64,000 nucleotides of DNA from an uncultured Acidimicrobiales bacterium. GTDB taxonomy: Bacteria; Actinomycetota; Acidimicrobiia; Acidimicrobiales; SHLQ01. A model generated the notes under the pieces. It was not told the origin of the DNA. It saw only the letters and a program-made list of their open reading frames with translations, and made no database searches. The stretch lies in NCBI GenBank assembly GCA_964451305.1, contig CAYVHV010000006.1, forward strand, positions 10,820 through 74,819. The letters are read 5' to 3'. Each line of letters begins with the position of its first letter. The stretch's first letter is position 1. Shown in pieces: positions 14,601-50,805 of the stretch. Both the position numbers and the translations under genes were made by a program.

Positions 14601-17600
14601 CGGGCGATTGCACAGTGATCGCAACCGACGGAGGCATGATCTTCACGCTCGACATCGAGAACGAAGGCAACGTCGACCTCACGAACTACCGAGTCGTCGA
14701 TGTGTTGCCATACAACGGTGACGCCACCGAAGCGCCATCAGCTCCACACCCATTTACTGGTGTGGCTCTGACCGGTGATGGCCGGACACCGCCGTCGTCA
14801 TTCTCTGGCGATCTCAATTTTGTCAACGCTGTTGCGCCCGCCGGCTCGACGGTGCTGTACTCCGCTGACGCTCCGGGCACGATCAGCCGTGACCCATCTG
14901 TAGCCGAGGCCGGCGGAACAACGTGGTGTGACGCCCCTGCCGCTGGAACGGCCGTTGCGGCGGGCTTGGGTGCAACTGCGGGAACTGGTGCTTGCCCAGC
15001 GTCCGCTGACGATGTCACTGCAATCCACATCGATCTTGGCACCCTTGACCGAGGCGCAACCGAGTTCATCGAAATCCAGCTCACGACCGTTGGAGCCGAA
15101 TGTGGCGATATTTGGACCAACAACTTCGGTGCACGCACCTTTGGTCTGCTTCTTCCAATCCGATCAAATGACGTATCGGTCATGTCAGGGTTCTGCGAAC
15201 CATCGATCGACATCGAAAAGGCGACGAACGGTCTCGACTCTGACACACCATCTGGTGCGCAGATCGTCGCTGGTGATCCAGTGACCTGGACGTACGTTGT
15301 CACGAACGACGGCGATGTTGCCCTCGCAAACGCCACAGTTGTTGACGTGCCAGCACCAGCTGGCGGCATCCTCTGTGACGTTGCTGGTGATGGAAGCTTC
15401 ACGGGAACGAACGTAATTCCACTGCTCCTTCCCGGTGAATCCGTGACCTGTGAAGCAACAGGAATTGCGACCGGTGGGCCGTTTGCGAACAACGCTTCGG
15501 TGGTGGGCGAGCCAGTCCTTCCGGACTTCTCGGACCCCGCTGTTGATCCCGCAGATCCATCGACATGGCCAACCGATCCAACGGCGTTTGCTGCGCCGAT
15601 CGATCCAGTCACCGGTGCTCCAGCACTCGACGATGTCGACGATGAAGATCCATCGCACTACACCGGCATCGTGCTCGAACCAGGAATCGATATCGAGAAG
15701 GACACCAATGGTGCCCAGTCCGATACCGCTCCTGGTGAGCTGTTGGTCGCCGGCGAAGCAGTGACGTGGACCTACGAGGTCACCAACACGGGTAACGCGG
15801 CGCTGCTCGACGCCGAAGTTGCCGACGTTGATTCGACTGGCGCTTCAGTTCCCGTCGTCTGTGACATCGATGGCGACGGCACGTTCGACGGAACGAACGT
15901 TATTCCGCTGCTGCTCCCAAGCGAGACGGTGACATGTCAGTCGACGGGAACGGCCCAGCCTGGTCCGTACTCGAACAACGCGACAGTGACCGGCACGACG
16001 GCATTGTCGAACGAGGCATGTGTGTGCGATCCGACCGATCCAACCACGTGGCCAACCGACCTGGCAGCGTTCTCTGCCTACGTCGACCCAGTGTCGGGCG
16101 AGACCCTTCCAGTGAGCGACGAGGATCCATCGAACTACACCGGCGTCGAACCAGGAATCGACATCGAGAAGGCCACCAACGGTGTCGACTCCGATGTCCT
16201 GCCTGGCCAGCCGGTCGCAGCTGGCTCGCTAGTGACCTGGACGTACGAGGTCGCGAACACCGGCGGCACGGCGTTGCTCGATGCAACAGTGTCCGATGTG
16301 CCAGCACCTGTTGGTGGCATCAGCTGCGATGTCGATGGCGATGGCGTACTCGATGGTACGAACGTGATTCCGTTCCTCGCAGTTGGCGCAAGTGTCACGT
16401 GTGAAGCGACCGGACTGGCACAACCCGGACCGTTCACGAACAACGCATCGGTATCGGGAACCCCAGCGTTGCCGGACTTCTCAAATCCAGCTGTTGACCC
16501 CGCAGATCCATCGACGTGGCCAACCGACCCAGCGCTGTTCAGTGTGCCGATCGATCCAGCCACAGGTGTTCCATTTACGGTCGCCGATGAGGATCCATCG
16601 AACTACACCGGGTTTACCCCGGACCCCGGCATCGATATCGAGAAGGACACCAACGGTGAGCAGTCCGATGAGGCCCCTGGTGAAGAGATTGCCTTTGGCG
16701 AGGCGGTCACCTGGACCTATGTCGTGACCAACACCGGCGGAACTGCTTTGGCGAACGCGACGGTTACAGACAACACCGGAGTCATCGTCGACTGTGACGT
16801 CGATGGTGATGGTGTGCTCGATGGAACCAACGTGATCCCGTTCCTCGCATTCGGCGCAAGCGTCACGTGTGAAGGAACCGGAACCGCTCAGGTCGGTCCA
16901 TACGAGAACATCGGTGACGTCACGGGTGACCCAATCACCCCCGACTTTGCGACCTGCGGTTGCGATCCAGAAGATCCAACCACCTGGCCAGCAGATGCTT
17001 CTGGTTATGTCGCAGCGGTCGACGACTCGGGCGCCCCATTGGGCCCAGTCACCGATGCCGATGCTTCGCACTACACCGGAACCGCAACCTTCGACCTTGC
17101 ATTGGAGAAGACGATTGCTGATGGCCAAGACACAGCGAACCTGGCCATTGGTGACGACGTCACCTACACCATCGAAGTGTTCAACCAGGGCACCGTCGAT
17201 GCAACGGACATCACCGTTATCGATTACACGCCGGCCGCTCTCGAGGTCAACGATCCCGACTGGACCGTCGACGCTGATGGCAACGCAACGATCGATCTCA
17301 CCGGTGTCACCGTGGCCCCAGGTGAATCAACATCGGTCGACATCACCATGACGATCCTCACCGCAGGAGATATCAACAACACCGCAGAGATCACCGGGTC
17401 AACACCGATCGATGCGTTCGGTGCGCCAATACTCGGTGCCGACGGAAACGTCCTCGCCGATGTTGATTCTGTCTCTGACGCACTCGACACCGACGTGCTT
17501 TCCGATGGAATCATCGATGGCGCCGACGGTGATGAGGACGATCACGATGTGGCGTCGATCAACGTGACTGCGCCAGTCACGTCGACGCCACCGACGCTTG

Positions 17601-17713
17601 CGTTCACCGGCGTCGAGTCGTATCAGCTATTCCTCCTTGCGCTTCTCGCACTTGGAGCAGGCATGGCCGCACTGGTTGCACGCAATGGCATGGTCGCTCG
17701 CAAAGAGGACTGA
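11615..17713 (+). CDS. 2032-aa cell-wall-anchored surface protein with DUF11/Ig-like repeat domains and an LAFTG sorting signal
   Basis: Signal-peptide-like N-terminus (RLVGLPVLVVALFGTLLVPTAAGAQQ). DUF11-type modules (for example LEKTIADGQD...VTYTIEVFNQGTVDATDITVIDY). Four tandem ~158-aa modules. The C-terminus is LAFTG, then a hydrophobic helix, then an RK-rich tail. Confidence 0.9.
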   Translation: MFDSVAPARKRAPWLKRLVGLPVLVVALFGTLLVPTAAGAQQQNEIVLTVDFDGTAAFSASDPLDNGAGLHTPGRDLNANNSVVRTYDQIQYRIDWNVNEVDGTTTTVSMVLPEGMEWLADATTASGVPSGCLDDGSSSITGLNGRELICNTDAEHEGSNGAIHPRAFVNGFPDGTPLNVTASVETDQLPPVVSNQITTIVSAAPGGDWVKGEPELDADSGEVIRYEPNETYFDIPGGASGELGRLFVWNLRLEPSGGLKGSEPLVDAMPLEFWDHFFDSVPGTELATPAQMLAATGLPRVPCGGYDGDGSYPFGITAGVPSTTPAAQTNIGEIACTDLGNSAGYPQVKFDITGHDTANIAASNADGSGNSTTLISAQVAFWAPESELSVPGTEIRNAITGSAAVVPLTASDVDPILVHGTNGPVPEFSENANGLAGLSNNSPYPLIPRVTGQPGRSVRHNVRYQNGPYSEVQWDTALGDTWRTYDRRELFNGGTGRVVNNGSNGVDENTPRWDGDGQTPRGNILTVVNTLNTLTSRDNGSEFFSPIHSCVAVDTTHQEVIGMPASFPISLREPNLAQNSAQQSIFTNSPTTGGLTGTPATPIAQVLTSVTGNSQVNYSGISGPAVNVADAELDWVLEVAELTDPGNAVGLHTVTCNGDEGTWVDATDAVALAGLETGTLADGTPVYGNVTHFRLRTAGDVAWNSDFFAANGTTSYGASALLNFQVRVKDNPTVQTAEQELFIYAGRATGDWDGSGQPTTANCTNASRFTGGTNTAIPAGWCNLSFTDDGVDTLDAQNGDLKDDFDTSAGEQFGALGTLSAHADVVYIIEPALAISKINTDGPGDIVANGQLVEFEINPRVVGSSLDTINNVRVTDALPANMVFAGFTSQPAGSPCAHAGGVITCSYGDQAGGWGSLGEGRFSFNVTIVDAGPNATLTNIATISGEDSQNPGLAVTPASSRAQAFTGAPFEESGIEKTVDPHITDCFEAPGTIHDPGDCTVIATDGGMIFTLDIENEGNVDLTNYRVVDVLPYNGDATEAPSAPHPFTGVALTGDGRTPPSSFSGDLNFVNAVAPAGSTVLYSADAPGTISRDPSVAEAGGTTWCDAPAAGTAVAAGLGATAGTGACPASADDVTAIHIDLGTLDRGATEFIEIQLTTVGAECGDIWTNNFGARTFGLLLPIRSNDVSVMSGFCEPSIDIEKATNGLDSDTPSGAQIVAGDPVTWTYVVTNDGDVALANATVVDVPAPAGGILCDVAGDGSFTGTNVIPLLLPGESVTCEATGIATGGPFANNASVVGEPVLPDFSDPAVDPADPSTWPTDPTAFAAPIDPVTGAPALDDVDDEDPSHYTGIVLEPGIDIEKDTNGAQSDTAPGELLVAGEAVTWTYEVTNTGNAALLDAEVADVDSTGASVPVVCDIDGDGTFDGTNVIPLLLPSETVTCQSTGTAQPGPYSNNATVTGTTALSNEACVCDPTDPTTWPTDLAAFSAYVDPVSGETLPVSDEDPSNYTGVEPGIDIEKATNGVDSDVLPGQPVAAGSLVTWTYEVANTGGTALLDATVSDVPAPVGGISCDVDGDGVLDGTNVIPFLAVGASVTCEATGLAQPGPFTNNASVSGTPALPDFSNPAVDPADPSTWPTDPALFSVPIDPATGVPFTVADEDPSNYTGFTPDPGIDIEKDTNGEQSDEAPGEEIAFGEAVTWTYVVTNTGGTALANATVTDNTGVIVDCDVDGDGVLDGTNVIPFLAFGASVTCEGTGTAQVGPYENIGDVTGDPITPDFATCGCDPEDPTTWPADASGYVAAVDDSGAPLGPVTDADASHYTGTATFDLALEKTIADGQDTANLAIGDDVTYTIEVFNQGTVDATDITVIDYTPAALEVNDPDWTVDADGNATIDLTGVTVAPGESTSVDITMTILTAGDINNTAEITGSTPIDAFGAPILGADGNVLADVDSVSDALDTDVLSDGIIDGADGDEDDHDVASINVTAPVTSTPPTLAFTGVESYQLFLLALLALGAGMAALVARNGMVARKED
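15197..17080 (+). repeat. four tandem ~474-nt coding modules (starts 15197, 15677, 16148, 16622) in an alternating A-B-A-B pattern
   Basis: Each module starts (E/D)P(S/G)IDIEK(A/D)TNG and ends DEDPS(H/N)YTG. Modules 1 and 3 share PDFS.PAVDPADPSTWPTDP. Modules 2 and 4 share C.CDP.DPTTWP. Confidence 0.85.
17597..17710 (+). other. sortase sorting signal (LAFTG, hydrophobic span, ARNGMVARKED tail)
   Basis: LAFTG is encoded at 17597-17611, followed by VESYQLFLLALLALGAGMAALVA and a basic tail. Confidence 0.8.
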
Positions 17714-17750
17714 CCGAGGCGTTCGCAATAACGTTGCGCAGTAACGGACG

Positions 17751-17791
17751 ACAGGTCGGATCCCACAGGGGTCCGGCCTGTGTTCGCGTTT
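17751..17791 (+). terminator. candidate intrinsic terminator of the surface-protein gene
   Basis: 13-bp stem (acaggtcggatcc / gggtccggcctgt, two G-U pairs that form only in the plus-strand RNA), a 5-nt loop, and a downstream T-run (gcgtttt). Confidence 0.5.
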
Positions 17792-18264
17792 TAGAGCGCG
17801 CCCATTCGAGCTGACGTCAGCTCTTCTAACACGTGCGAGAGGACCTGATAGATGACCTTGGCTTGAGCGTCGGGATCGCTCTCGTCGATCGGGTCTTCTG
17901 CCTCGCCGACGTCGAGACGGGTACCGAGGACGAGACGGCACTGGTTGATCGTGTTCATCCAGTGGTCGGCTGTCTCGATGCTGATCGACTCGTTTTCGAG
18001 CGTCGCTTGGACCTTGTCGATGCCATCGAGCCGAGCCATCAACAACTGGTCGTGAACCATGTCGCGATAGCCCGCCTCGAGTTCTTCGTCGTCGGGGTAC
18101 GCCGTTGGATAGAGCCGCTTGACCTCGTCAACCTCGTCGAGCAGGAGCAATTCACGGAGCTCCTCGGTGACGTGGCGCACCAACTCGCGCAGTGTGTCGT
18201 CGAGTCGAACGGTGATCTCTTCGCCTTGCAGCTTGAACATGCGCCTAAACATCGGGTGAGCCAT
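17791..18264 (-). CDS. DUF2017-like protein (ClpS-associated)
   Basis: Acidic helical protein ([25 protein letters not shown]...[15 protein letters not shown]) directly downstream of clpS. The start is ambiguous (Met codons at 18264, 18252 and 18240). The longer track ORF overlaps clpS heavily. Confidence 0.65.
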
Positions 18265-18583
18265 CTTTTTGCATCGTTGCCCACAGGCCATGCTCATGAA
18301 GCCGAGCAACGTCGGCCTCTGCCTTTTCTTTGGGCCCACTCGACACAACCGCCCGACCCTTGTGGTGCACGTCGAGCATCAGCTCCGTCGCTTTTTCTTT
18401 GCTGAAGCCGAACAGCTTTTGGAGAACGAACGTTACGTACGACATCAGGTTGATCGGGTCGTTCCACACCAACACGACCCACGGCATGTCGGGTCGAACC
18501 TCGACATGGATATCGACATCTGGTTCGGCTACTTCTAAGGGGGAGGTCATCATTGGTGCATTCATGGCGCTCGCAGAAGTCAT
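18245..18583 (-). CDS. clpS: ATP-dependent Clp protease adaptor ClpS
   Basis: [47 protein letters not shown] matches the ClpS core. Confidence 0.9.
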
Positions 18584-18600
18584 AGCGGTAAGCCCGTACG

Positions 18601-19620
18601 TTACGAGACGAGTTCGGAGGCGCGGCCTGTCGGTGCGCCTTCGGCGATCGGATCAGCAGCCACCATTGCGTACCAGGTAACGGCGGTCCACAACAGGACC
18701 GAGCCCGCAATGTGTATCGCGACCAGCCCGACCGGTACCCCGATTCCGTACTGGATGTATCCAACAGCGCCTTGGAGCAAGGCCAGCGAGCCGATCCGGC
18801 CGAACCACTTTTGGTCGAGCATCGACCACGCCTTTTCGCCGTCCGCGTTTCGTGCTTTCCACATCCCAAGCACGATCAAGACGACGAGCACCCAGCCGAG
18901 GAGTGAATGGATGCGGCTGATCTCGCGAATGTCGAAACCGAGGCGCGGAATTGGCTCGCCGGACGATTCGCTACCGGTGTGAGGCCCAGAGCCGGTGACG
19001 AACGTTCCGACGACGATGACCGTCGTTGCCGAGAGGAACATCGAGCGGGCGAGAAGACGACGCTTGAGTTCCTGGGCTGACCGAGCTGGCTGACGGTCGC
19101 CGCTGGCGCGCGGGTTGCGGGCTCGATAATCCAAGACCACGCCGAACCAGATCAAAACGATCGAGAGCAAGAAGTGGCCGATGACGACCCTCGGGTCGAG
19201 CTCGGTCCGAGTGACCAACATGCCCAACAAGACCTGGCCAATGAAACCAAAAACGGTGGCATAGATGACGCCCAACAGATCGGGTCGGGAGCGACGAGCA
19301 CCAATCCACGCTGCGATCACCGGGATGATCGCGAGGCCCGAGATCATCCGGTTGCCGAATTCGATCGCGGAGTGAAAGCCAGGCGCATCGAGTTCGGTGT
19401 TTACCGAACACGTTGGCCAGTCCGTACAGCCGAGGCCCGAACCGGTCAGTCGAACCGCTGCACCGGTGACCGTGATGACCATCAACCAGACCAACGCAAA
19501 GCGAGTCCAGAAGCTGAGCGGCCGCGCCCAGACGGTCGGGTTGGACGCGACGGAGCCTGCGTTCGCGGCGTTGTCTTCCTCGAAGCCGGTGTTCTTACCG
19601 GGAGTCAAGAATTTCGACAT
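18601..19620 (-). CDS. ctaA: heme A synthase (COX15/CtaA family)
   Basis: [18 protein letters not shown] motif, 8 hydrophobic helices, conserved His in helices. Start set at MSKFLTPG (ATG 19620). The upstream extension in the track is Arg/Cys-rich and looks non-coding. Confidence 0.85.
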
Positions 19621-19682
19621 GTGACAACGATACGCCCGATGACGTTGGCATAAACAACGCAACGGGTCGTAACCTGTCGAGC

Positions 19683-20582
19683 GTGACAACTGTTGCGCCC
19701 GTGGCGTCCTCCCGTTCAACGCTTGCTGCATACGTTGCGTTGACGAAGCCTCGCATCATCGAGCTGCTGTTGATCACAACGGTTCCGACGATGATCGTCG
19801 CTCAGCGCGGTTGGCCCAGCCTCTGGCTGATCGTTGCAACCGTCGTCGGTGGCACGTTTGCTGCCGGCGGTGCAAACGCCGTCAACATGTACGTCGATCG
19901 AGATATCGACAAGATCATGAACCGCACCAAGGGTCGTCCGCTCGCTACCGGCGAGATCGAGCCCAAGAATGCACTGATCTTCTCAGTGGCGCTTCTGGTT
20001 ATCGCATTTGTCTGGCTGACAGCGTTTGTGAATTTGCTCTCCGCAGTCTTTGCGCTGTCGGCAGCGGCTTTTTACATCTTCGTGTACACGTTGTGGCTCA
20101 AACGAACGTCTACACAGAACATCGTTATCGGTGGCGCCGCTGGTTGTATGCCCGTTCTCGTTGGCTGGGCTGCGGTCACCAACAGCGTTGGGTGGGAGCC
20201 AATCGTGCTCTTCGGTGTCATCTTCTTATGGACGCCGCCACATTTCTGGGCGCTTGCGGTCAAGTACAAGGAAGACTATTCAGCGGCCAACGTGCCGATG
20301 TTGCCGTCGGTCGAAACGCTTGAGAACACCTCGAAGCAGATTTTGGCGTACACCTTGGCCGTGTGGGCGCTCTCGATTGCGTTCACGCCAATCGCGTCGA
20401 TGGGCTGGATCTACACGGTGACGGCGGTTGTGTCCGGTGCGGTATTCACGCTGTACGCCGTGCAACTGCTGCGAGATCCAACTCCAAAACGAGCAATGAA
20501 GGTCTTTACCTTCTCCATCACCTATTTGTCGGTGCTGTTCATTGCTATGGGTGTCGATTCGCTCGTTATTCCAGTCGCATAG
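19683..20582 (+). CDS. ctaB: protoheme IX farnesyltransferase (heme O synthase)
   Basis: ALTKPRIIELLLITT, NMYVDRDIDKIMNRTKGRPLATG, and a UbiA-type polyprenyltransferase layout. Divergent from ctaA. Confidence 0.9.
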   Translation: MTTVAPVASSRSTLAAYVALTKPRIIELLLITTVPTMIVAQRGWPSLWLIVATVVGGTFAAGGANAVNMYVDRDIDKIMNRTKGRPLATGEIEPKNALIFSVALLVIAFVWLTAFVNLLSAVFALSAAAFYIFVYTLWLKRTSTQNIVIGGAAGCMPVLVGWAAVTNSVGWEPIVLFGVIFLWTPPHFWALAVKYKEDYSAANVPMLPSVETLENTSKQILAYTLAVWALSIAFTPIASMGWIYTVTAVVSGAVFTLYAVQLLRDPTPKRAMKVFTFSITYLSVLFIAMGVDSLVIPVA

Positions 20583-20627
20583 CCACGATCCAAACACCGG
20601 CGTTTCGCGCCCTCAGTGGTCAAATAT

Positions 20628-20649
20628 CGCGCGGTTCGTGCGCTCTTTT
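20628..20649 (+). terminator. weak candidate terminator after ctaB
   Basis: gcgcg-gttcg-tgcgc short stem followed by tctttt. Confidence 0.3.
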
Positions 20650-20830
20650 GAGGTGTTGGCGGCCGGATCATCGGTGTGACGTCGGTCTCCGAGTGGACGT
20701 TGGTCGGTGAAGCGCGCGAGAACTATTGTCTGAATCGGAATAAAGCGCCGATCTGGGTCAAAAGTCCCGTAACATTCGGGAGTCCCTTTTGGTCGGCGCG
20801 CGACCACACGTTCAAGGTGAATCTTTCTCG

Positions 20831-22522
20831 ATGACAGCAACGGAAACGCAACCAGAGGCTCACGAAGACATCGGTGAGACTCATGAGGCAGAAATGGGTG
20901 CAGCGTCGAGTGACGGTCTGTACCGGCTCATCGCATCCAACGACCACAAAGATGTCGGTCGCATGTGGATCGCGATGTCCCTCATCTTCTTCGTTGGCCT
21001 CGCCGCTCTCGGTGTCGTAAACGAAATCGAACGAATTTCGGTAGACCCGCAGATCTGGGGCAGCGTAAGCCGCGCCTTCCAGAGCTGGGTACTCTTCCGA
21101 ACCGGAGCGATCTTCATGGTCGTCATCCCAATGTTCATTGGCCTCGCAACGGTCGTTACGCCCCTGCAGGTTGGTTCGGCAGCCATTGCGTTCCCCCGCC
21201 TCACCGCAGCATCGTTCTGGGGCTGGCTGTTCGCATCGATCATCCACGTCGTTTCGTTCCTCGCCGACGGTGGCCTCGGTCCGGCGCAGACCACCAGCCA
21301 GCAGTCGACGCTCCTGACGATGACGTCGCTCAGCTTCATGATCATTGCGCTCCTCGGCGCATCGGTCGCTATTGCGACGACCATCGTGGCACTGCGCCCG
21401 ACCGGAATGACCTTGATCGATGTCCCTGCCTTTTCGTGGTCGATGCTCGTCGCCACCTCGATCTGGCTGCTGTCGCTGCCGGTTCTGATCTCCAACATGA
21501 TCTTGGCCTACGTCGATCTTCAGGGCCGCCCGTTCCTCGACCTTGGCAACCCCGACCTCCTGTGGTCCCGTCTCGAATGGGCCTGGTCACAGCCGCAGGT
21601 CTTCGCGTACGCCATCCCGGTCCTCGGCATCCTCGCCGACGTCATGCCGGTGCAGACGAAGAGCCGTCAGGCGGGACGTCCAATCTTGCTTGGAATGATC
21701 GGCATGTTCGGCGTGCTCTCGTTCGGCGCGTGGGCCCAGAGCTTCTGGTCAAAGGGCGGGGATCCCGCCTTCGAGAACGGCAACTTCATCTACGAAGAAA
21801 CGCTGTACATCTTGTTCGGCCTGCTCATCTTCCTCCCCGCATTTGGGGCATTTAGCGGCTCGATGGACCAGATCCGACGGGGTACAGCCCCAAAGCCAGG
21901 CGGCGCACTCGTCGGTGTGGCGAGCGGTGCGCTCTTGCTCCTCGGAGCAACGGTCGCTGGTGAGCTTCGAGTCCTTGCAGGACTGCTCGACCTTCTCGGT
22001 GTGAACCCAAGCTGGAGCGCCCTCGAGACGAACGGTGTCCTCCTCTCATCATCGACCGGCATCTTGCTCATGGTCGTCGCAGCGGCAATGGCATCGGCGA
22101 TCGGTGGCCTCGTCCACTGGGCGCCGAAGATCTTCGGCGGCTTTGCAGTCGACCCGCTCGCCGCTCTCGGAGCAATGGCCCTCCTCGGCGGTGGTGTGGC
22201 CGCTGGCGTTGGCAACATCATCTCGGCCTTTGACGGCCAGCCCGATGACATTCGTTTCGTCGACAACGTCGATGGCCTCATCAGCACGATGAACGTCCTG
22301 TCGACCGTCGGCCTTGCAATGATGGCCGCCGGTGCCCTTGCGATGATTGGCTCAATTCTTCCGGCCGGGCGAAGCAAGGAAGTCATCTCCGATGATCCAT
22401 GGGGTGGACAGACCCTCGAGTGGGCGTCCCCATCGCCACCACCGATCGGCAACTTCGTCGAACCCGTCGGTGTCGTTCGCTCACCTGAACCATTGCTCGA
22501 CGAGATCGAGGGGGCCAACTGA
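20831..22522 (+). CDS. heme-copper oxidase subunit I-like protein lacking the canonical heme/CuB ligands
   Basis: Collinear by eye with the CtaD encoded at 25358: NDHKDVGRMW, AFPRLTAASFWGW, LRPTGMTLIDVPAFSW, DPWGGQTLEW. The ligand positions read R (21098), Q and F (21590, 21602) and QS (21737-21742). The start could also be 20789. Confidence 0.8.
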   Translation: MTATETQPEAHEDIGETHEAEMGAASSDGLYRLIASNDHKDVGRMWIAMSLIFFVGLAALGVVNEIERISVDPQIWGSVSRAFQSWVLFRTGAIFMVVIPMFIGLATVVTPLQVGSAAIAFPRLTAASFWGWLFASIIHVVSFLADGGLGPAQTTSQQSTLLTMTSLSFMIIALLGASVAIATTIVALRPTGMTLIDVPAFSWSMLVATSIWLLSLPVLISNMILAYVDLQGRPFLDLGNPDLLWSRLEWAWSQPQVFAYAIPVLGILADVMPVQTKSRQAGRPILLGMIGMFGVLSFGAWAQSFWSKGGDPAFENGNFIYEETLYILFGLLIFLPAFGAFSGSMDQIRRGTAPKPGGALVGVASGALLLLGATVAGELRVLAGLLDLLGVNPSWSALETNGVLLSSSTGILLMVVAAAMASAIGGLVHWAPKIFGGFAVDPLAALGAMALLGGGVAAGVGNIISAFDGQPDDIRFVDNVDGLISTMNVLSTVGLAMMAAGALAMIGSILPAGRSKEVISDDPWGGQTLEWASPSPPPIGNFVEPVGVVRSPEPLLDEIEGAN

Positions 22523-23133
22523 TGGCAGCCAATGCAGTCACTGCACCACCAGCACCTGAACTCGCACGTAACCGCACGCTCGTCGTAGGCACCGCCTTCG
22601 TCTCCGGCGCGGTGATCATGCTGTTCGTTGGGTTGTTCAGCGTCTATATCTCGATCCGCCAGAACAACGAACTCCTCGTCGAGAGCCTCCTCGGCGGAAG
22701 CCTCTGGTTCCCTGAAGGCGCAGTGCAGATCGCGCCCGGAACCATGATGATGTTCACCACGTGGATCTCGGTCATGACGATCGCATGGGCCGTGCAGGCC
22801 TTCAGAAACGACGATCGTCGCAACGCCTACGTTGCTCTCACCCTCACCATTCTTATGGGAGCTGCGGTGATCAACCAGATGGTCTTCGCAATTGGCGACT
22901 TTGGCCTCCCCGTCGATCGGTCGACCCCAGCGATGCTGCTGTTCACGCTCTACGGCAGCTACATCGTGCTGCTCGGCACAGCGATCGCATTCGTCTTTCT
23001 CATGTTCATGCGAGCCATCGCTGGACAGTTCAACTCAAAGAACGCTGACGGCATCGAAGCTGCCGCCATCTTCTGGTACGCAACGGTGATTCTGTACCAC
23101 CCCATCTGGTACCTCATCACCATTACGAAGTGA
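22522..23133 (+). CDS. oxidase subunit III-like 5-TM protein (divergent paralogue)
   Basis: Collinear with CtaE at 27396: AVQAFRNDDRRN vs ALSAVKRDDERN, FTLYGSYIV vs FTLTGFHGVHV, IFWYATV vs LYWHFVD. Its start overlaps the preceding stop (TGATG). Confidence 0.7.
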   Translation: MAANAVTAPPAPELARNRTLVVGTAFVSGAVIMLFVGLFSVYISIRQNNELLVESLLGGSLWFPEGAVQIAPGTMMMFTTWISVMTIAWAVQAFRNDDRRNAYVALTLTILMGAAVINQMVFAIGDFGLPVDRSTPAMLLFTLYGSYIVLLGTAIAFVFLMFMRAIAGQFNSKNADGIEAAAIFWYATVILYHPIWYLITITK

Positions 23134-23140
23134 GCCTGAC

Positions 23141-23944
23141 ATGATTCCAACAGGATTAAAGCTCTACGCCGGTATCGCCGTCGCCGCTCTTGCCGCCGCC
23201 GCCCTTGGTGGCTGGACGAGTGGTGGCAGCTTCGTCGGGCCGATCAGCGCTGGCTACAAGGGCGGCATTGGTGACTACGTCAGCTACGTCGTGCTCGTCG
23301 GTGTGGCATTCGTGTCGATCATCGTCGGCGGCCTTCTCACCGTCTTTCGCGATGCTGACGCAACCGCCGTTGCGGCATCGATGGGACTTGCTCAGGCGCC
23401 GGTCGGACAGCGTCCGGTCGCAGCATCCATCTGGCCGATCGTCGCCGGCATTGGTGTGTCGTTCCTCGCTGTAGGTATTGCAGTCAACGCTGCGATCACC
23501 GGCGTCGGCTTTGTCATCCTCGCCATCGTTGCATTCGAGTGGACCATGACCGCATGGGCCGATCGAGCAACCGGTGACTCCAAGGCCAACGAAGCGCTTC
23601 GCGCCCAGATCATGGGCCCGTTCGAGATTCCATTGCTCGGCCTCATGGCTGCGGGCGTCGTCGTCATTGCGGTCAGCCGAATCTTGCTCGCCTCATCTGA
23701 GCTTGGAGCGGTCGTCGTCGGCGGCGTCGTTTCGGTCATTATCTTGGGAGTCGGCATTTTCGCCGCTCAGGGGCCAACAGTTTCTAAGAATGTGATTACA
23801 GGAGTTGCTGGCGTTGTGCTTGCTGGCATACTCATCGGAGGTGTTTGGGGTGCCGTGTCGGGAACACGTGTCATCGAAGAGCACTTCGAAGAGGGAGAAT
23901 CGGGCGAGGTAGAGGGCGAAGCGGCTGTAGAGGCTGAATCGTGA
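23141..23944 (+). CDS. multi-pass membrane protein with a CtaF (actinobacterial subunit IV)-like segment and an acidic tail
   Basis: SIWPIVAGIGVSFLAVG...GFVILAIVAFEW resembles the S.(W/F)P...two-helix motif of actinobacterial CtaF and the C-terminal extension of the CtaD below. Starts 8 nt after the previous gene. Confidence 0.55.
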   Translation: MIPTGLKLYAGIAVAALAAAALGGWTSGGSFVGPISAGYKGGIGDYVSYVVLVGVAFVSIIVGGLLTVFRDADATAVAASMGLAQAPVGQRPVAASIWPIVAGIGVSFLAVGIAVNAAITGVGFVILAIVAFEWTMTAWADRATGDSKANEALRAQIMGPFEIPLLGLMAAGVVVIAVSRILLASSELGAVVVGGVVSVIILGVGIFAAQGPTVSKNVITGVAGVVLAGILIGGVWGAVSGTRVIEEHFEEGESGEVEGEAAVEAES

Positions 23945-24041
23945 CCTGCCCCGACCACGCTGTCACTTCACCCTCCCGACTACGCTCGGGAAAAGTTTCA
24001 CAAGTAATCGTTGACCTCGATCAGTGCCGAAGGAAACATCA

Positions 24042-25358
24042 ATGAACCGCCTCAAACCGTCAACTCGTAAGGTTGTTAAATTCCTTGCGCTCTTGACGGC
24101 AGCATTCGTTCTGGCAGCGTGTGCCGATAACGCGCCGCTCGATACTCGTGGAGACAACCTCCAAGGACCGGAAGCCCGCGACATCGAGAGCTTCCTGCGT
24201 TGGGTCTTGTGGGTCGCATACGTGGTGTTCGCACTCGTGATGGGTCTCACGTTGTATGCCTGGAAGAACTTCCGCATCAAGACCGACGACTACGAGGACG
24301 ATGAGTTTCCCGAGCAGATCGACCACAGTAAGTGGGAGATTGTCTGGACGATCGTTCCTGCGATCATCCTCGCCGTTGTCGCAGGATTCACGCTCATCTT
24401 GCACCTTCAAGTCAACGGCCGCGAAGACAATCCGATCACGGTGGAAGTCGCCGATGGGTCCTCGGTCGAATGGGAACCGGAGATCGTCGTTGTTGGCCAG
24501 CAATGGTGGTGGGAGTACCAGTACCACTTCGGCGATGTTGAGCTCACCGCCCAGCGCGTTGAAACGCTCCCAAACGCAGACATCACCACCGCAACCCAGA
24601 TGGTCATCCCGGTCGGCATGGAGATCGAACTCGAAGTCACCAGCCGCGACGTGATCCACTCGCACTGGATTCCATCGCTAAACGGTAAGCGTGACGCCGT
24701 TCCCGGCCGCCAGAGTGCACCGTGGAAGATTCAAGCCGATGAACCGGGTGTCTACTTCGGTCAGTGCACCGAGTTCTGTGGCCTCTCACACTCCCGTATG
24801 CGCATGCAGGTCGTGGCGCTCCCAGAGGCAGAGTTCCAAGAGTGGGTCACCGCCCAGATGACCGGCCTCGAGCTCTCCCCAGAAACCGCTGCGTACGTCG
24901 CTGAACTCGCAGCTGGCGAGACCATCCCTCCAGAGGGCAACGAGCAGCGTGCGATCGACACCTTCCGCACCAAGTGCGCATCGTGCCACGTGCTCGATGG
25001 TGTCACCGACGGCATCGTTGCTCGTCCGGAAGAACAGCTCGTTTCCGGTGCAGCTCCGAACCTCACGCACTTTGCAACTCGAACCACCTTCGCCGGTGGT
25101 ATCCGCAACGTGTACGACACGAACACCGGTGAGTTCAACCGCAACGATCTTGCCCAGTGGCTTCGCGATCCAGCGTCGATCAAAGCGAACTTCACCGAGC
25201 CAGTAAGTGACACGGATAGCCGCCTCCGCGGAATGCCAAACCTGGGTCTCACCACTCAGGAAGTAGACGATCTCGTATCGCTACTCGAATCGACCGGGCC
25301 TCAAGAGGGCGAATTTGAGTCGTTCGATTTCATCATCGAAGAAACGGGGATCGAATAA
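24042..25358 (+). CDS. ctaC: cytochrome c oxidase subunit II with a fused C-terminal cytochrome c domain (caa3 type), lipoprotein-like signal
   Basis: CuA site HSHWIP...CTEFCGLSHSRM, heme c site CASCH, N-terminal LALLTAAFVLAAC. ATG 24042 is preceded by GAAGGAAA. GTG 24024 is an alternative start. Confidence 0.9.
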   Translation: MNRLKPSTRKVVKFLALLTAAFVLAACADNAPLDTRGDNLQGPEARDIESFLRWVLWVAYVVFALVMGLTLYAWKNFRIKTDDYEDDEFPEQIDHSKWEIVWTIVPAIILAVVAGFTLILHLQVNGREDNPITVEVADGSSVEWEPEIVVVGQQWWWEYQYHFGDVELTAQRVETLPNADITTATQMVIPVGMEIELEVTSRDVIHSHWIPSLNGKRDAVPGRQSAPWKIQADEPGVYFGQCTEFCGLSHSRMRMQVVALPEAEFQEWVTAQMTGLELSPETAAYVAELAAGETIPPEGNEQRAIDTFRTKCASCHVLDGVTDGIVARPEEQLVSGAAPNLTHFATRTTFAGGIRNVYDTNTGEFNRNDLAQWLRDPASIKANFTEPVSDTDSRLRGMPNLGLTTQEVDDLVSLLESTGPQEGEFESFDFIIEETGIE

Positions 25359-27403
25359 TGGCAATTATCGACCAGCCATTGGCCATCGGCTCTGGCGACG
25401 GACCGGTTGAGACCGTCGATCGTCCGCTCGGTACGATCACCCGGCCTCGAGAATCTGGAACCTGGCGAGACTGGCTGACCACCGTCGACCATAAGAAGAT
25501 CGGCATCATGTACGGCGCTGCCGCGATGTTCTTCTTCGTGATCGGTGGCGCTGAAGCGTTGCTGATTCGCCTCCAGTTGGCCACTCCAAACGGCACGCTG
25601 TTGTCGCCCGAGGTGTACAACCAAGTCTTCACCATGCACGGCGTGACGATGATCTTCCTCGTCGCAATGCCCATGGGTGCGGCGTTTGCCAACTACCTCC
25701 TGCCGCTGCAAATCGGTGCTCGAGATGTGGCATTCCCTCGTTTGAATGCGCTCAGTTTCTGGGTCTTCCTCTTCGGTGGATTGTTCTTGAACTCGGCATG
25801 GCTACTCGGCGGTGGCGCCGACGGCGGCTGGTTCAACTACGCACCGAACTCGACGGTGACGTTCTCGCCATCGCACGGCATCGACTTCTACGCACTCGGC
25901 CTGCAGATCACCGGTGTTGCTTCGCTCGTCGGCGCAATCAACCTGATCACGACCGTGCTGAACATGCGTCCCAAGGGCATGACCCTGATGCGGATGCCGA
26001 TCTTCACATGGATGAACCTGGTCGTACAGTTCCTACTGCTCTTCGCAGTTCCCGTGATCTCGGTGGCACTGTTCGAACTCACCTTCGACCGCCTCTTCGA
26101 CGCCAACTTCTTCAACACCGAAGCCGGCGCCGACCCGTTGCTCTGGCAGCACCTCTTCTGGATCTTTGGTCACCCAGAGGTGTACATCCTCATCCTTCCG
26201 AGCTTCGGCATTGTCTCCGAGGTCATCCCGGTCTTCTCCCGTAAGCCAATCTTCGGGTATAGCTTCATGGTCGCTTCGGGCGTTGCCATTGGGTTCATGG
26301 GCTGGGGCGTTTGGGCTCACCACATGTTTGTTTCGGGCATCGGTCCAATCTCGGTCGCTGCGTTCTCGCTCTCGACGATGTTCATCGCGGTGCCAACCGG
26401 CGTGAAAATCCTCAACTGGCTCGCAACGATCTGGGGCGGCAAGCTGCGCTTCAACACTGCAATGCTCTTCGCTGTCGGCGTCGTCTCGATGTTCACCATC
26501 GGCGGACTCTCCGGCGTCACCCACTCGATTGCGCCAGCTGACACCCAGCAGACCGACACGTACTACATCGTTGCTCACTTCCACTACGTGATCTTCGGTG
26601 GAACGCTCCTCGGCTTCTTCTCTGGCTTCTACTTCTGGTGGCCAAAGATGTTTGGCTACAAGCTCAACGAGAAGCTCGGTAAGACCAACTTCTGGCTTCA
26701 GATCGTCGGCTTCAACGTCACATTCGGTCCGATGCACATCCTTGGACTCCAAGGCATGAGCCGTCGTATCGATACCTACGATGCGGGCTTCGGGTTTGAG
26801 TTCTGGAACCTCGTTGCAACCGTCGGTGCGTTCATCATCGCCCTCGGTATTGCATTCTTCTTCGTAAACGTTGCGGTCAGCCGCAGGCAGTGGATTGCCG
26901 CTGGCAAGCCAAACCCTGGACCCGATCCATGGGACGCACGAAGCCTCGAATGGATGACCGCATCCCCAACGCCGGTTCACAACTTCGACGAAGAGATCAT
27001 CGTCGATAGCCAAGATGAGTTCTGGCATCGCAAGTACGGCTATGACGAGCAGGGCAACGTTGTCCGCATCGCCACCGCCGAAGAAGTCGCTCAGGACGGA
27101 TCGAACACCAATGTTCACCTCCCATCACCGAGCTACTTCCCAATCTTGCTGGCGCTCAGCATGCCGATCATCAGCTATGGCCTGATCTACAGCCTCTGGC
27201 TCTGCATTCCTGGCGGAATGCTCATGGTGTACTCGATGGTCGGTTGGATGTTCGAGCATCCCGACGATCCAAACGCCGCACACGACGATCACGGCCACGA
27301 TGACCACGGCGATGCGCCAGACGCACTCGAAGCCGGAGATGTCGAGGAAGAGCTCGTCGGCGTAGGAGCCGGAGCACCTGAAACGGAGGTCACCGATGGC
27401 TAG
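25358..27403 (+). CDS. ctaD: cytochrome c oxidase subunit I (all six canonical His present), with a two-helix C-terminal extension and a His/Asp-rich tail
   Basis: FTMHG (His codon 25637), FGHPEVY (His 26171, Tyr 26183), AHHMF (26318-26323), AHFHYV (26576, 26582). Its start overlaps the ctaC stop (TAATG). Confidence 0.95.
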   Translation: MAIIDQPLAIGSGDGPVETVDRPLGTITRPRESGTWRDWLTTVDHKKIGIMYGAAAMFFFVIGGAEALLIRLQLATPNGTLLSPEVYNQVFTMHGVTMIFLVAMPMGAAFANYLLPLQIGARDVAFPRLNALSFWVFLFGGLFLNSAWLLGGGADGGWFNYAPNSTVTFSPSHGIDFYALGLQITGVASLVGAINLITTVLNMRPKGMTLMRMPIFTWMNLVVQFLLLFAVPVISVALFELTFDRLFDANFFNTEAGADPLLWQHLFWIFGHPEVYILILPSFGIVSEVIPVFSRKPIFGYSFMVASGVAIGFMGWGVWAHHMFVSGIGPISVAAFSLSTMFIAVPTGVKILNWLATIWGGKLRFNTAMLFAVGVVSMFTIGGLSGVTHSIAPADTQQTDTYYIVAHFHYVIFGGTLLGFFSGFYFWWPKMFGYKLNEKLGKTNFWLQIVGFNVTFGPMHILGLQGMSRRIDTYDAGFGFEFWNLVATVGAFIIALGIAFFFVNVAVSRRQWIAAGKPNPGPDPWDARSLEWMTASPTPVHNFDEEIIVDSQDEFWHRKYGYDEQGNVVRIATAEEVAQDGSNTNVHLPSPSYFPILLALSMPIISYGLIYSLWLCIPGGMLMVYSMVGWMFEHPDDPNAAHDDHGHDDHGDAPDALEAGDVEEELVGVGAGAPETEVTDG

Positions 27404-28028
27404 CGCAACGGTTGCAATGGACCACGGGGCCGATCACGGTCACGAGGAGCACGAGACCAACTACGGCATGAGCAACAACAAGATGGCCATGTGGCTGTTC
27501 TTGTCGTCTGACTGCCTGCTCTTCGGAGCGTTGATCTCCACGTTCCTGCTCTACCGCACGAACATCTCCGACGGTACGCCGTTCACCGAGCCAGCCGACG
27601 TGTTCGACATCCCGTTCACCTCGCTCAGCTCGTTCGTGTTGCTGATGAGCTCGCTCACGATGGTGCTCGCACTGTCGGCGGTGAAGCGTGACGACGAACG
27701 CAATGGCCGAATCTGGCTCCTCACCACTGCCTTCCTCGGTATGGTCTTCATCGGTGGACAGATCTACGAGTTCACAATCTTCAGCGCAGAAGGTCTGCAG
27801 TACTCCACAAACACGTGGACCTCAGCGTTCTTCACGCTGACCGGCTTTCACGGAGTGCACGTCAGCGTCGGCATCTTGTTGCTCATGGGAACGGTGTTCG
27901 GCACCCGCAACAGTGGCCTCGGTAAAGAGAAGAGTGAAGCCGTCGAGCTCGTTGGTTTGTACTGGCACTTCGTCGACATCGTCTGGGTCATCATCTTCAC
28001 CGTCATCTACCTCATCCCGATCGGATAA
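27396..28028 (+). CDS. ctaE: cytochrome c oxidase subunit III (5-TM form)
   Basis: FFTLTGFHGVHVSVG and LYWHFVDIVWVIIF motifs. Overlaps the ctaD end by 8 nt. Confidence 0.9.
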   Translation: MASATVAMDHGADHGHEEHETNYGMSNNKMAMWLFLSSDCLLFGALISTFLLYRTNISDGTPFTEPADVFDIPFTSLSSFVLLMSSLTMVLALSAVKRDDERNGRIWLLTTAFLGMVFIGGQIYEFTIFSAEGLQYSTNTWTSAFFTLTGFHGVHVSVGILLLMGTVFGTRNSGLGKEKSEAVELVGLYWHFVDIVWVIIFTVIYLIPIG

Positions 28029-28039
28029 GGGGAATTCGT

Positions 28040-28444
28040 ATGTCTGTCACAGAGAACACTCCAATGGACCACGTCGATCACGACGGTATGGATCACGATC
28101 ACGATCACGAACACCCAACAGATCGAAGCTACGTGATGATCGCTCTCGGTCTTGCCGTGCTCACCGCGGTCGAGGTTCTGCTCTTCGTCCTCGAGGATTG
28201 GATCGGCGACAACCTTGGTCTCGGCAGTGTGAAGATTGCCCTAGTCCTCTTGATGATCGTCAAGTTCTGGATTGTCGGTGCGTACTTCATGCACCTCAAG
28301 TTCGATAACCCGATCCTCACTCAGCTGTTTCTGTTTGGGCTCGTACTAGCGGTCGTGGTGTATTTCATCATGCTGTCCGCGTTTGAGTTCTCGTTCTGGA
28401 ACGACGGCTTCGAAGACACCGGTTTACCCGGGGGAATTAGCTAG
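28040..28444 (+). CDS. ctaF: cytochrome c oxidase subunit IV (prokaryotic CtaF/COX4_pro type)
   Basis: Three TM helices, VKFWIVGAYFMHLKFD motif, His/Asp-rich N-terminus. Confidence 0.75.
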   Translation: MSVTENTPMDHVDHDGMDHDHDHEHPTDRSYVMIALGLAVLTAVEVLLFVLEDWIGDNLGLGSVKIALVLLMIVKFWIVGAYFMHLKFDNPILTQLFLFGLVLAVVVYFIMLSAFEFSFWNDGFEDTGLPGGIS

Positions 28445-28446
28445 CT

Positions 28447-29358
28447 GTGTTGCTGGCTCAAGAGATCAACCCGTGGCAGTACCAACCTCACCCCGAGGTC
28501 TGGGTTCTCGTTCTTGGGATTGTGGGCTTGGGCTTCTACGCGACTCGGGTGATCGGCCCGAAGGTCGTTACTGAAGGTTCGCTCGATTCGGACGGAAATC
28601 CACTCGAAATCGCAACCGTTCGTCAACGGCGATTCTTCGCTGGTGCGGTCGTGACCTTGGCGATCGCCGCCGATTGGCCAATGCACGACATTGCGGAGCG
28701 GTATCTGTACTCGGTGCACATGTTCCAGCATCTGCTGATCACGTTCTTCATCCCGATTCTGTTCTTAAAGGCCACGCCTGAGTGGCTTGCTCGCCTGATC
28801 CTCGGCGGTGGCGATCAAGGCCGCACCCTGGTCGGAAAGCTTGCAAAGCCAGTCGCTGCTGGCGTCACCTTCAATTTCCTTGCTGCGCTCACCCACTGGA
28901 ACGGAATCGTTCAACTCTCCTTCGATTCTGGTCCCTTTCACTACGGCATCCATCTCCTGATGTTCAGCTCGGCGCTGCTCATGTGGCTTCCCGTCCATGG
29001 CCCGCTTCCAGAACTTCGCCTCAAGGTGCCAGCACAGGTCATCTACCTGTTCCTCATGTCGATCATTCCAACGATCCCTGCTGGCTGGCTGACCTTCGCC
29101 GACAACCCGGTGTATCCGGCGTACGACACGGTCGATCGTCTGTGGAACATCAGCGCCGTCAACGACCAGCAGATGGCTGGCTTCATCATGAAGGTGCTCG
29201 GCGGCTTCTTCTTGTGGGTCATGATCGGAATCAAGTTCTTCGGCTATGCGGCGAAAGAACGTGCGTCAGACCTCGAGAAGCGTGTTGTTCGTCCCCTCAC
29301 CTATGACGAGGTAACGAACGAGTTCAACCGCAGCGAGCCATCGCGCGTCGAGTTGTAG
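28447..29358 (+). CDS. ctaG: cytochrome c oxidase assembly factor CtaG (Caa3_CtaG family)
   Basis: YSVHMFQHLLITFFIPILFL, multi-pass membrane protein, last gene of the cta operon. Confidence 0.8.
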   Translation: MLLAQEINPWQYQPHPEVWVLVLGIVGLGFYATRVIGPKVVTEGSLDSDGNPLEIATVRQRRFFAGAVVTLAIAADWPMHDIAERYLYSVHMFQHLLITFFIPILFLKATPEWLARLILGGGDQGRTLVGKLAKPVAAGVTFNFLAALTHWNGIVQLSFDSGPFHYGIHLLMFSSALLMWLPVHGPLPELRLKVPAQVIYLFLMSIIPTIPAGWLTFADNPVYPAYDTVDRLWNISAVNDQQMAGFIMKVLGGFFLWVMIGIKFFGYAAKERASDLEKRVVRPLTYDEVTNEFNRSEPSRVEL

Positions 29359-29514
29359 CCTCCAGATACTCCCGCAAGATTCTGCGGCAGCGCGCCTTGC
29401 CTGTGCGCAGAAACTCACTCTGCGTATTTGTGTCAGGGATTATTCCGCAGAAGTTGTCGCACAAAGTGGCGATGCGAATAGTATTGGCTACTAACTGGGC
29501 GACAGGAGTAGGGC

Positions 29515-50650: not shown

Positions 50651-50752
50651 GATTTCCTCGATCGGAGGGGTTGAGCTGTTCGGTGTTGGTCCAGCTATGT
50701 GACCAGTGTCATGCATGCGAGAGGCTTAAGGGTTTGCATGTTTGTCTTCGTA

Positions 50753-50770
50753 TGATAAGTATGCTTATCA
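50753..50770. promoter_or_regulatory. candidate operator palindrome TGATAAG-N4-CTTATCA
   Basis: Perfect 7-bp inverted repeat in an AT-richer divergent promoter region, 36 nt upstream of the lipoprotein ATG. Confidence 0.3.
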
Positions 50771-50805
50771 ACAGAGATCAAGCCGAACGGCGAGGGAGCA
50801 AATAC

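Follow-up and report, generated by a model that had tools for sequence, protein, structure and literature searches.

In the heme-copper oxidase (HCO) superfamily, subunit I is regarded as having six invariant histidines. Here we describe a cassette of three genes, named psD, psE and orf3, which encodes a family of oxidase-like membrane proteins that retains the fold of the oxidase core and not its histidines. The cassette lies between ctaB and ctaC in a 64,000-nt stretch of DNA from an uncultured Acidimicrobiales bacterium (contig CAYVHV010000006.1); this whole stretch is referred to as the window, and all coordinates are positions within it. The closest described system is the aa3 core (CtaD, CtaE and CtaF) of the CIII2CIV2 supercomplexes of Mycobacterium and Corynebacterium. 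In Actinobacteria, CtaE and CtaF together replace the canonical seven-helix subunit III, hold cardiolipin in the cleft and form the main contact to complex III (PMC8361435; bioRxiv 10.1101/2021.06.16.448340). The trio resembles this core in its fold of 12 transmembrane (TM) helices, its five-TM subunit III of the CtaE type and its CtaF domain; it differs from it in the absence of heme and copper ligands, cross-link tyrosine, D and K channels, arginine pair and subunit II, in the three extra helices of orf3, and in being contiguous and inserted into a Bacillus-like ctaB-ctaCDEFG operon. Since the trio corresponds to a subunit I plus a split subunit III, it amounts to the whole membrane core of an oxidase minus subunit II. 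Our favoured reading, to which we assign a probability of roughly 40%, is that the trio is a redox-dead I′/III′/IV′ structural partner of the caa3 oxidase, made together with it.

Two other systems invite comparison. CydB, an established obligatory subunit of cytochrome bd in direct contact with CydA, offers the nearest functional analogy, though no more than an analogy, in that the trio too may be viewed as a cofactor-less paralogue encoded next to a catalytic subunit and kept as its partner. Unlike CydB, the trio is a whole multi-subunit core that has been duplicated, and its association with the oxidase is putative (compare a related preprint, 10.1101/2021.01.16.426971). The second comparison is with gNOR and other recent HCO families, which, like the family described here, are divergent, have an altered active site and came from the mining of environmental sequences. 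In gNOR one active-site histidine is replaced, which was called a first in the HCO family, and both hemes and the metal are still bound (Murali et al. 2024, PMC11214002). Unlike gNOR, psD replaces all six histidines, and no member of its family retains more than one CuB histidine.

The three genes of the cassette are as follows.

psD, 20831..22522, + strand: 563-amino-acid (aa) paralogue of subunit I (CtaD) with 12 TM helices and 0/6 histidine ligands; key codons F89 at 21095, R90 at 21098, Q254 at 21590, Q256 at 21596, F258 at 21602, Q303 at 21737 and S304 at 21740.
psE, 22522..23133, + strand: 203-aa, five-TM paralogue of subunit III of the CtaE type; its start overlaps the psD stop (ATGA).
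orf3, 23141..23944, + strand: 267-aa membrane protein with seven TM helices and a CtaF/Cyt_c_ox_IV-type N-terminal domain.

An earlier note, made from the letters of the sequence, had placed three intact open reading frames (ORFs) between ctaB and ctaC, and these were found, all on the + strand, at 20789/20831-22522, 22522-23133 and 23141-23944. One boundary changes: the TTG at 20789 is replaced as the start of psD by the ATG at 20831, because homologues start with MTATET and an AAGGTG Shine-Dalgarno sequence precedes this codon. Sequencing error is excluded, since independent public assemblies contain identical psD and orf3 proteins (protein P0001 occurs on 2 contigs, P0121 on 29 contigs). 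The frames are intact in every locus.

The homology of psD to subunit I is far beyond chance. The protein matches Pfam COX1 (PF00115) with 97.7 bits (cutoff 34.8, E 8.9e-28) and TIGR02891 with E 1.2e-52, but its 179 bits against the latter fall far under the equivalog cutoff of 671; among sequences of the PDB its best match is mycobacterial CtaD (E 1.5e-42). An AlphaFold2 (AF2) model (predicted TM-score, pTM, 0.81) contains 12 TM helices, and Foldseek aligns it to A-type subunit I with TM-scores of 0.70-0.74 and E ∼1e-14, a mycobacterial chain being on top. With the neighbouring genuine CtaD, psD is collinear, sharing 25% identity over 555 residues (BLASTP).

The register of the substitutions was established by BLASTP against the genuine CtaD, by phmmer against mycobacterial CtaD and by two MAFFT alignments, all of which agree: no histidine stands at any ligand position. 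SQPQVF is found in place of GHPEVY (Q254, Q256, F258), WAQSFW in place of WAHHMF (Q303, S304), and helix X has small or aliphatic residues and no histidine. The ligand substitutions that the earlier note had listed thus hold in substance and in register, except that the helix II histidine aligns with F89 and not with the arginine at 21098; that residue, R90, lies opposite the glycine of FTMHG. At the site of the cross-link tyrosine the window has F258; a tyrosine stands there in 79 of 108 relatives, without its histidine partner.

Channel and propionate residues, whose roles (like those of the gating residue) are established knowledge of A-type oxidases, were mapped via the genuine CtaD onto the same 108 relatives. 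In the D channel the aspartate has become serine or alanine and the asparagines alanine and threonine; the gating glutamate is glutamine in 107 of the 108; in the K channel the lysine is alanine, valine or leucine and the threonine is phenylalanine; and the arginine pair at the heme propionates is Asp/Ile. Still in place in psD are its cytoplasmic loops together with the structural Trp/Pro/Gly residues. No COX2-like ORF was detected in the trio, either in the ORF list or by Pfam scan, in line with the earlier remark that a subunit II paralogue is missing. From these residues psD is predicted to be unable to bind heme a, heme a3 or CuB. With ligands, cross-link tyrosine, D and K channels and arginine pair all gone, it follows that psD neither reduces O2 nor pumps protons through any known HCO mechanism: it is a member of the HCO superfamily by fold and homology, and stands outside the enzyme family by the features that define it, namely ligands, channels and subunit II.

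The second gene shows the same pattern. psE passes Pfam COX3 (PF00510) at 25.6 bits (cutoff 23.8), and its best NCBIfam match is aa3_CtaE_Actin, at 21.8 bits against a cutoff of 190. An alignment of 16 psE sequences with 12 genuine CtaE sequences is collinear over five helices. Throughout the psE family GFHGVHV has become YGSYIV (family form yGsyiv), WHFVD has become WYATV (WyATV), and the glutamate of helix III is phenylalanine; the 16 sequences also carry strongly conserved motifs of their own.

orf3 consists of four N-terminal helices of the CtaF/Cyt_c_ox_IV type, a cytoplasmic motif, three extra helices and an acidic tail; its conserved motifs are FRDADA, S-x-WP and the cytoplasmic EW..AWADRATGD..N..R...P.E.P...SR. 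The AF2 model, of moderate quality (pLDDT 71, pTM 0.49), has seven TM helices. The family is an orphan, with ∼109 matches, every one of which is labelled ‘hypothetical’. The proposal that the third gene is CtaF-like is supported through an orthologue, in the locus L018, and by profile comparison, the orf3 of the window itself lying below every Pfam threshold and giving no PF12270 match at E <= 0.1. Within the orf3 family PF12270 matches weakly in only 5 of 28 members (best E 0.006). The L018 orthologue, which matches the orf3 profile over its full length with 190 bits, passes PF12270 at 29.9 bits (cutoff 26.9), its residues 6-123 corresponding to profile positions 5-123 of 132. In addition, hhalign pairs residues 69-138 of the orf3 family with the PF12270-like hairpin of the genuine CtaD (92.7%, E 4e-7). 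Foldseek, given the orf3 model, places 7q21_F, 8hcr_H and 6hwh_S at ranks 1, 4 and 8; these are subunit IV chains of 139-143 residues from three actinobacterial supercomplexes (8hcr_H carries the name ‘Cytochrome c oxidase polypeptide 4’), and the matches are non-significant (E 0.27-1.4, target-normalised TM-score ∼0.35). When the PDB was searched by sequence, neither the orf3 profile nor the L018 orthologue's N-terminal domain found a match.

Two distant lineages have a longer orf3 orthologue (L018:11232-12266, 344 aa; L021:12263-13519, 418 aa), which continues after the last TM helix into a beta-rich C-terminal domain. The L018 ectodomain resembles Cupredoxin_1 below threshold (E 0.28, and 0.032 for the isolated domain, with 14.7 bits against a cutoff of 27); no cupredoxin match was obtained for the L021 ectodomain. 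If the L018 match is real, this lineage would carry a subunit II-like ectodomain on a dead core.

The genes that flank the cassette in the window are listed below.

ctaA (heme A synthase), 18601..19731, − strand: Pfam COX15-CtaA, E 1.5e-19; divergent from ctaB.
ctaB (heme O synthase), 19683..20582, + strand: Pfam UbiA, E 1.7e-68; always the upstream neighbour of the cassette.
ctaB-psD intergenic region, 20583..20830: 248 nt, with the AAGGTG Shine-Dalgarno sequence 11 nt 5′ of the ATG.
ctaC, 24024..25358, + strand: genuine subunit II, fused to a cytochrome c domain (caa3 type), 80 nt 3′ of orf3; matches Pfam COX2, COX2_TM and Cytochrom_C, and TIGR02866 above cutoff.
ctaD, 25358-27403, + strand: genuine subunit I with every ligand present; 683 bits against TIGR02891, exceeding the cutoff; a PF12270-like hairpin is added at the C-terminus.
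ctaE, 27396-28028, + strand: COX3 match.
ctaF, 28040-28444, + strand: COX4_pro match.
ctaG, 28447-29358, + strand: Caa3_CtaG match.

A search of related genomes for the cassette beside cta genes, as the earlier note had suggested, revealed a fixed position between ctaB and ctaC. In 21 loci of Acidimicrobiia-type genomes, with psD identity down to ∼40%, the genes are arranged as (ClpS-DUF2017-ctaA, divergent) ctaB-psD-psE-orf3-ctaC-ctaD-ctaE-ctaF(-ctaG). Carriers comprise metagenome-assembled genomes (MAGs) of Acidimicrobiales (psD identity 56-85%), metagenome contigs (40-48%), a freshwater lineage of Actinomycetota, one contig of 540 kb, and a 4.1-Mb genome of Ilumatobacter sp. (RefSeq WP_420451651.1). 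A few contigs with the cassette bear MAG labels from elsewhere (Verrucomicrobiales, Chthoniobacterales and Acidobacteria; L006, L007 and P0453). The CtaD of L006 is 82% identical to that of the window, and L007 stops before ctaD, its ctaB being 82% identical. Since the contigs share the cassette and have a CtaD 82-89% identical to that of the window, the foreign labels probably stem from binning errors.

Spacing within the cassette is tight. The overlap of psD stop and psE start (ATGA) is kept in every locus, psE and orf3 are separated by 7-13 nt, and in L019 and L024 orf3 overlaps ctaC by 4 nt. The overlap of psD and psE in all loci, together with that of orf3 and ctaC in these two, argues for stoichiometric production of the trio along with the oxidase. 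No terminator-like site was found between orf3 and ctaC in the window. The spacer between ctaB and psD contains two weak terminator-like hairpins (20628-20642 and 20765-20781; with their T-runs, 20628-20651 and 20765-20790), and the other loci have a gap of 100-250 nt at the equivalent position. Matches to promoter and terminator consensus sequences are within shuffled expectation (11 found, 8.2 expected), and an Rfam scan of window positions 17500-30000, the ctaB-psD spacer included, detected no RNA family.

Selection was assessed as dN/dS (the ratio of non-synonymous to synonymous substitution rates; Nei-Gojobori, seven genome pairs), dS being near saturation in most pairs. Values for the trio are 0.06-0.21, which is the range of ctaC, ctaF and ctaG; those for genuine ctaD and ctaE are 0.02-0.15. 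In the cleanest pair (L012/L013, dS ∼0.5) psD, psE and orf3 each give 0.21 as compared with 0.24 for ctaC. The trio is therefore under purifying selection and not in decay, and the view of the earlier note that it is no decaying duplicate is borne out by selection, conservation and synteny alike. psD nonetheless evolves faster than genuine CtaD, with a mean pairwise identity in the same genomes of 0.47 versus 0.79.

The cassette of the window is one representative of a large family. An exhaustive profile search of 1.84 billion representatives gave 519 matches at E <= 1e-30, of which the best 150 were examined. Each of these represents a cluster at 50% identity, so that the psD-like family has at least 150 such clusters; none of the 150 scores below 257 bits, and most align along almost the entire profile, against which genuine CtaDs score ∼200-214 bits. 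A single 90%-identity cluster comprises 436 member sequences. For ligand counts, 133 full-length representatives were re-aligned with genuine CtaDs. None of the six histidines is present in 84 of the 133. Both axial ligands of the low-spin heme (the helix II histidine and the H-Y/F/L-V motif of helix X) are retained in 16, three of which also retain the histidine of the high-spin heme (an H-x-H motif like AHFHYV); at the helix II position many members have tyrosine. At most one of the three CuB histidines survives in any of the 133, and the maximum overall is four of six ligands. Ligand loss is thus family-wide, in support of the inference, drawn originally for the window, that the trio is redox-dead.

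One partial-ligand member, P0250 (L024:1445-3079), has three heme histidines and zero CuB histidines, and is found in the cassette ctaB-psD-psE-orf3-ctaC-ctaD; because it shares this cassette with ligand-free members, cofactors would have been lost stepwise at one orthologous locus. Some psD orthologues are thus possibly heme-binding, CuB-less proteins, and the clade of the window appears to be the fully ligand-free end-point of the series. Since orthologues with and without heme ligands occupy the same locus, function evidently persists in either state. As in P0250, the low-spin axial pair is retained in P0301, P0311 and 13 further representatives.

Across 127 representatives sharing no more than 50% identity, nearly all positions conserved at 80% or above are scaffold residues common to genuine CtaD (DH-G, P..G, PLQ-G...AFPR, R..GM...P-F-W, W250, P255, W-PK..G and PW-G-TLEW..SP). 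To these the family adds an S..P..D tail of its own at the cytoplasmic C-terminus; no polar intramembrane site specific to the family was present across the 127. When constraint was compared with that on genuine CtaD from the same 12 genomes, psD was best kept in the II-III and IV-V loops, in helix III and in the C-terminal tail (ratio 0.77-0.92) and least where helix II begins and in helices VIII and X, the former cofactor helices (ratio 0.40-0.48). With conserved positions belonging to the scaffold and relaxation greatest where cofactors once were, the constraint on psD appears to be structural and not chemical.

Several roles can be set aside on these data. A new catalytic site is rejected, there being no family-wide polar site. 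Of the roles that had been put forward on first inspection of the locus, that of proton channel is disfavoured, since every D- and K-channel residue has given way to a non-protonatable one among the 108 relatives; a transporter-like role is weakened, because the broad family conserves no polar intramembrane residue; and a partner in structure or supercomplex, or in assembly, remains a candidate.

On the favoured reading psD, psE and orf3 would be co-transcribed, and translationally coupled to each other and, in several lineages, to ctaC. Their products would assemble into a redox-dead I′/III′/IV′ subcomplex that keeps the architecture of subunit I and subunit III, the lipid cleft and the cytoplasmic surface, and that would serve as a non-catalytic scaffold or docking module for the caa3 oxidase and possibly for the bcc complex, docking perhaps through the CtaE/CtaF-type face. 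Complex formation, contact with the oxidase and the structural role are what we infer from the homology, fold, residue loss, conservation, synteny and selection observed. As to a bcc partner, qcrC is recorded as present and expressed in a cultured strain of Acidimicrobiia in the supplement of PMC11697166, where values are given per KEGG orthologue. More tentatively, the trio could be a stoichiometric ‘pseudo-complex IV’ within a new respiratory supercomplex, docking bcc or caa3, with the family recording a stepwise loss of first CuB, then the high-spin heme and finally the low-spin heme.

Three sets of observations weigh against the favoured reading. Firstly, cta operons also encode assembly factors (ctaG), and operon membership cannot separate a subunit from an assembly factor. 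Secondly, a truncated psD-like gene of 481 aa stands alone in L020:932-2377, L022:9001-10446 and L023:5732-7177; it is flanked by a PemK toxin-antitoxin pair on one side and, on the other, by genes for glycerol kinase and glycerol-3-phosphate dehydrogenase-like proteins, and with no cta, psE or orf3 nearby, some members would seem to act without an oxidase operon. Thirdly, in the window's own clade a glutamine triad (Q254, Q256 and Q303), E67 and R90 are nearly invariant, and this conservation could reflect a specific ligand or ion site rather than packing.

The first of these leads directly to the strongest alternative, that the trio is an assembly or maturation factor: a dead core acting as a transient template or holdase during caa3 biogenesis and absent from the mature enzyme. 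Such a factor might hold CtaC, CtaE or lipids, or might organise the delivery of heme a by CtaA and CtaB. The cassette lies directly 3′ of ctaB and near ctaA, in an operon that also holds the assembly factor ctaG; the trio is under selection; and mimicry of a client protein would be a plausible design for a chaperone. We regard this reading as possible and, on balance, rather doubtful. Lacking histidine ligands, psD has no obvious hold on heme a, and translational coupling and a place ahead of the structural genes suggest stoichiometric, not catalytic, amounts. Helices VIII and IX of subunit I also face subunit II, and since conservation is lowest in the helices that face subunit II and the cofactors, a role in holding CtaC is not favoured. 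NifEN, the scaffold paralogue of NifDK, is comparable, except that it retains its cluster sites and psD does not.

The second and third sets point elsewhere, to exaptation of the HCO scaffold for an independent function (a channel, transporter, sensor, or lipid- or gas-binding complex) that is merely co-regulated with respiration. Besides the stand-alone gene next to glycerol-3-phosphate dehydrogenase-like and glycerol kinase genes, found in one lineage, and the five conserved polar residues of the window's clade, orf3 lends itself to this view with its three extra helices, its sharply conserved cytoplasmic motif and, in some lineages, its extra ectodomain. We consider such a function unlikely: the broad family has no conserved polar intramembrane residue beyond scaffold ones common to genuine CtaD, the D and K pathways are now lined by alanine, serine, threonine, phenylalanine and valine, and linkage to ctaB and ctaC is nearly universal (21 loci).

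A residual redox protein, in which a cofactor would be bound through non-histidine ligation and electrons received, for example, from CtaC, is very improbable. The distant representatives with both low-spin axial histidines (16 of 133, three of them also with the a3 histidine and one in the same cassette) and the tyrosine at the helix II position in many members are what could be said for it. In the window's clade, however, the ligand positions are Phe, Gln, Gln, Ser and small helix X residues, and the arginine pair is Asp/Ile; furthermore, no member has more than one CuB histidine left, and a subunit II paralogue is lacking. That the trio is a decaying duplicate or assembly artefact without function, as the loss of all catalytic residues and the faster evolution of psD (0.47 against 0.79) might suggest, is scarcely credible given intact frames in every locus, dN/dS of 0.06-0.21, identical proteins in independent assemblies, conserved family-specific motifs, and retention of the cassette over class-level divergence and at least 150 clusters at 50% identity; a pseudogene is excluded by dN/dS and conservation.

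The origin of the trio was approached by comparing scores. The psD profile scores 245 bits against mycobacterial CtaD and 214 against the CtaD of its own neighbourhood; for the single psD sequence the values are 149 and 111 bits. The neighbouring caa3 ctaD and ctaE are homologous to and collinear with psD and psE, and probably belong to the same operon. The genuine CtaD, for its part, is nearest to B. subtilis QoxB (544 bits) and then to mycobacterial CtaD (512 bits), and genuine CtaE has CyoC and QoxC as its best NCBIfam matches, where psE has the actinobacterial CtaE model; orf3, in turn, is related to CtaF, which is specific to Actinobacteria. Because psD scores lower against its own neighbour than against mycobacterial CtaD, the trio does not appear to be a recent tandem copy; on this asymmetry of scores it looks like a descendant of an actinobacterial aa3 core. 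Neither this proximity to the aa3 core rather than to the neighbouring caa3, nor the size of the family, nor the members that keep heme ligands had been foreseen by the earlier note.

Several features of the neighbourhood deserve brief mention. The C-terminus of the genuine CtaD (27100-27403, aa 587-681) adds two extra TM helices (PF12270, E 4.8e-8) that resemble TM13-14 of B. subtilis QoxB (E 0.02) and are followed by an acidic, His-rich tail, HDDHGHDDHGD. In most other loci that reach so far (L012-L014, L019 and L021) serS lies directly 3′ of ctaG on the same strand; in L018, where ctaG is missing, it comes after ctaF. The window differs in that ctaG and serS are separated by small ORFs and a 667-aa ORF without a Pfam family (29515-31518), serS (32778-34028) lying on the other strand; the segment 29515-34028 looks like a local insertion or inversion. 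On the other side, the ClpS and DUF2017 pair (17791-18583, − strand) holds the same place in L012-L016, L018, L019 and L021, adjoining ctaA, or ctaB where ctaA is absent, and is conserved in all lineages. Beyond it (11615-17713) is a gene for a repetitive, Asp/Thr/Gly-rich secreted protein of 2032 aa whose LAFTG end, hydrophobic helix and basic tail constitute a predicted cell-wall anchor of the sortase type, as is typical of Actinobacteria. The gene at 50671-52005, some 20 kb 3′ of the cta cluster, encodes a ‘low iron-inducible periplasmic protein’ that is Fea1-like (PF07692, E 4e-28), of a family best known from algae.

Neither the cassette nor a family of HCO subunit I without ligands was found described in the searchable literature, most subscription-journal papers being outside its coverage; to that extent the remark of the earlier note that it knew of no described function for such a trio stands. 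The six histidines were a requirement in the HCO classifier of Sousa et al. 2011, which dropped sequences lacking them (PMC3084760), and since surveys of this kind remove precisely such sequences, the family would have been overlooked. psD proteins appear in public databases as ‘hypothetical protein’, as ‘cbb3-type cytochrome c oxidase subunit I’ or as ‘heme/copper-type cytochrome/quinol oxidase subunit 1’; because of the oxidase labels, surveys of genomes and metagenomes can overcount terminal oxidases.

The carriers of the family are Acidimicrobiia-type genomes (Ilumatobacteraceae, Acidimicrobiales and freshwater Actinomycetota MAGs), and in these a large family has parted with the whole catalytic apparatus, yet retained the fold and a fixed place in an oxidase operon. 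For mechanism, it amounts to a natural experiment on the non-catalytic job of the subunit I/III scaffold. For evolution, orthologues at the same locus with zero, two, three or four of the six ligands make the path of cofactor loss testable.

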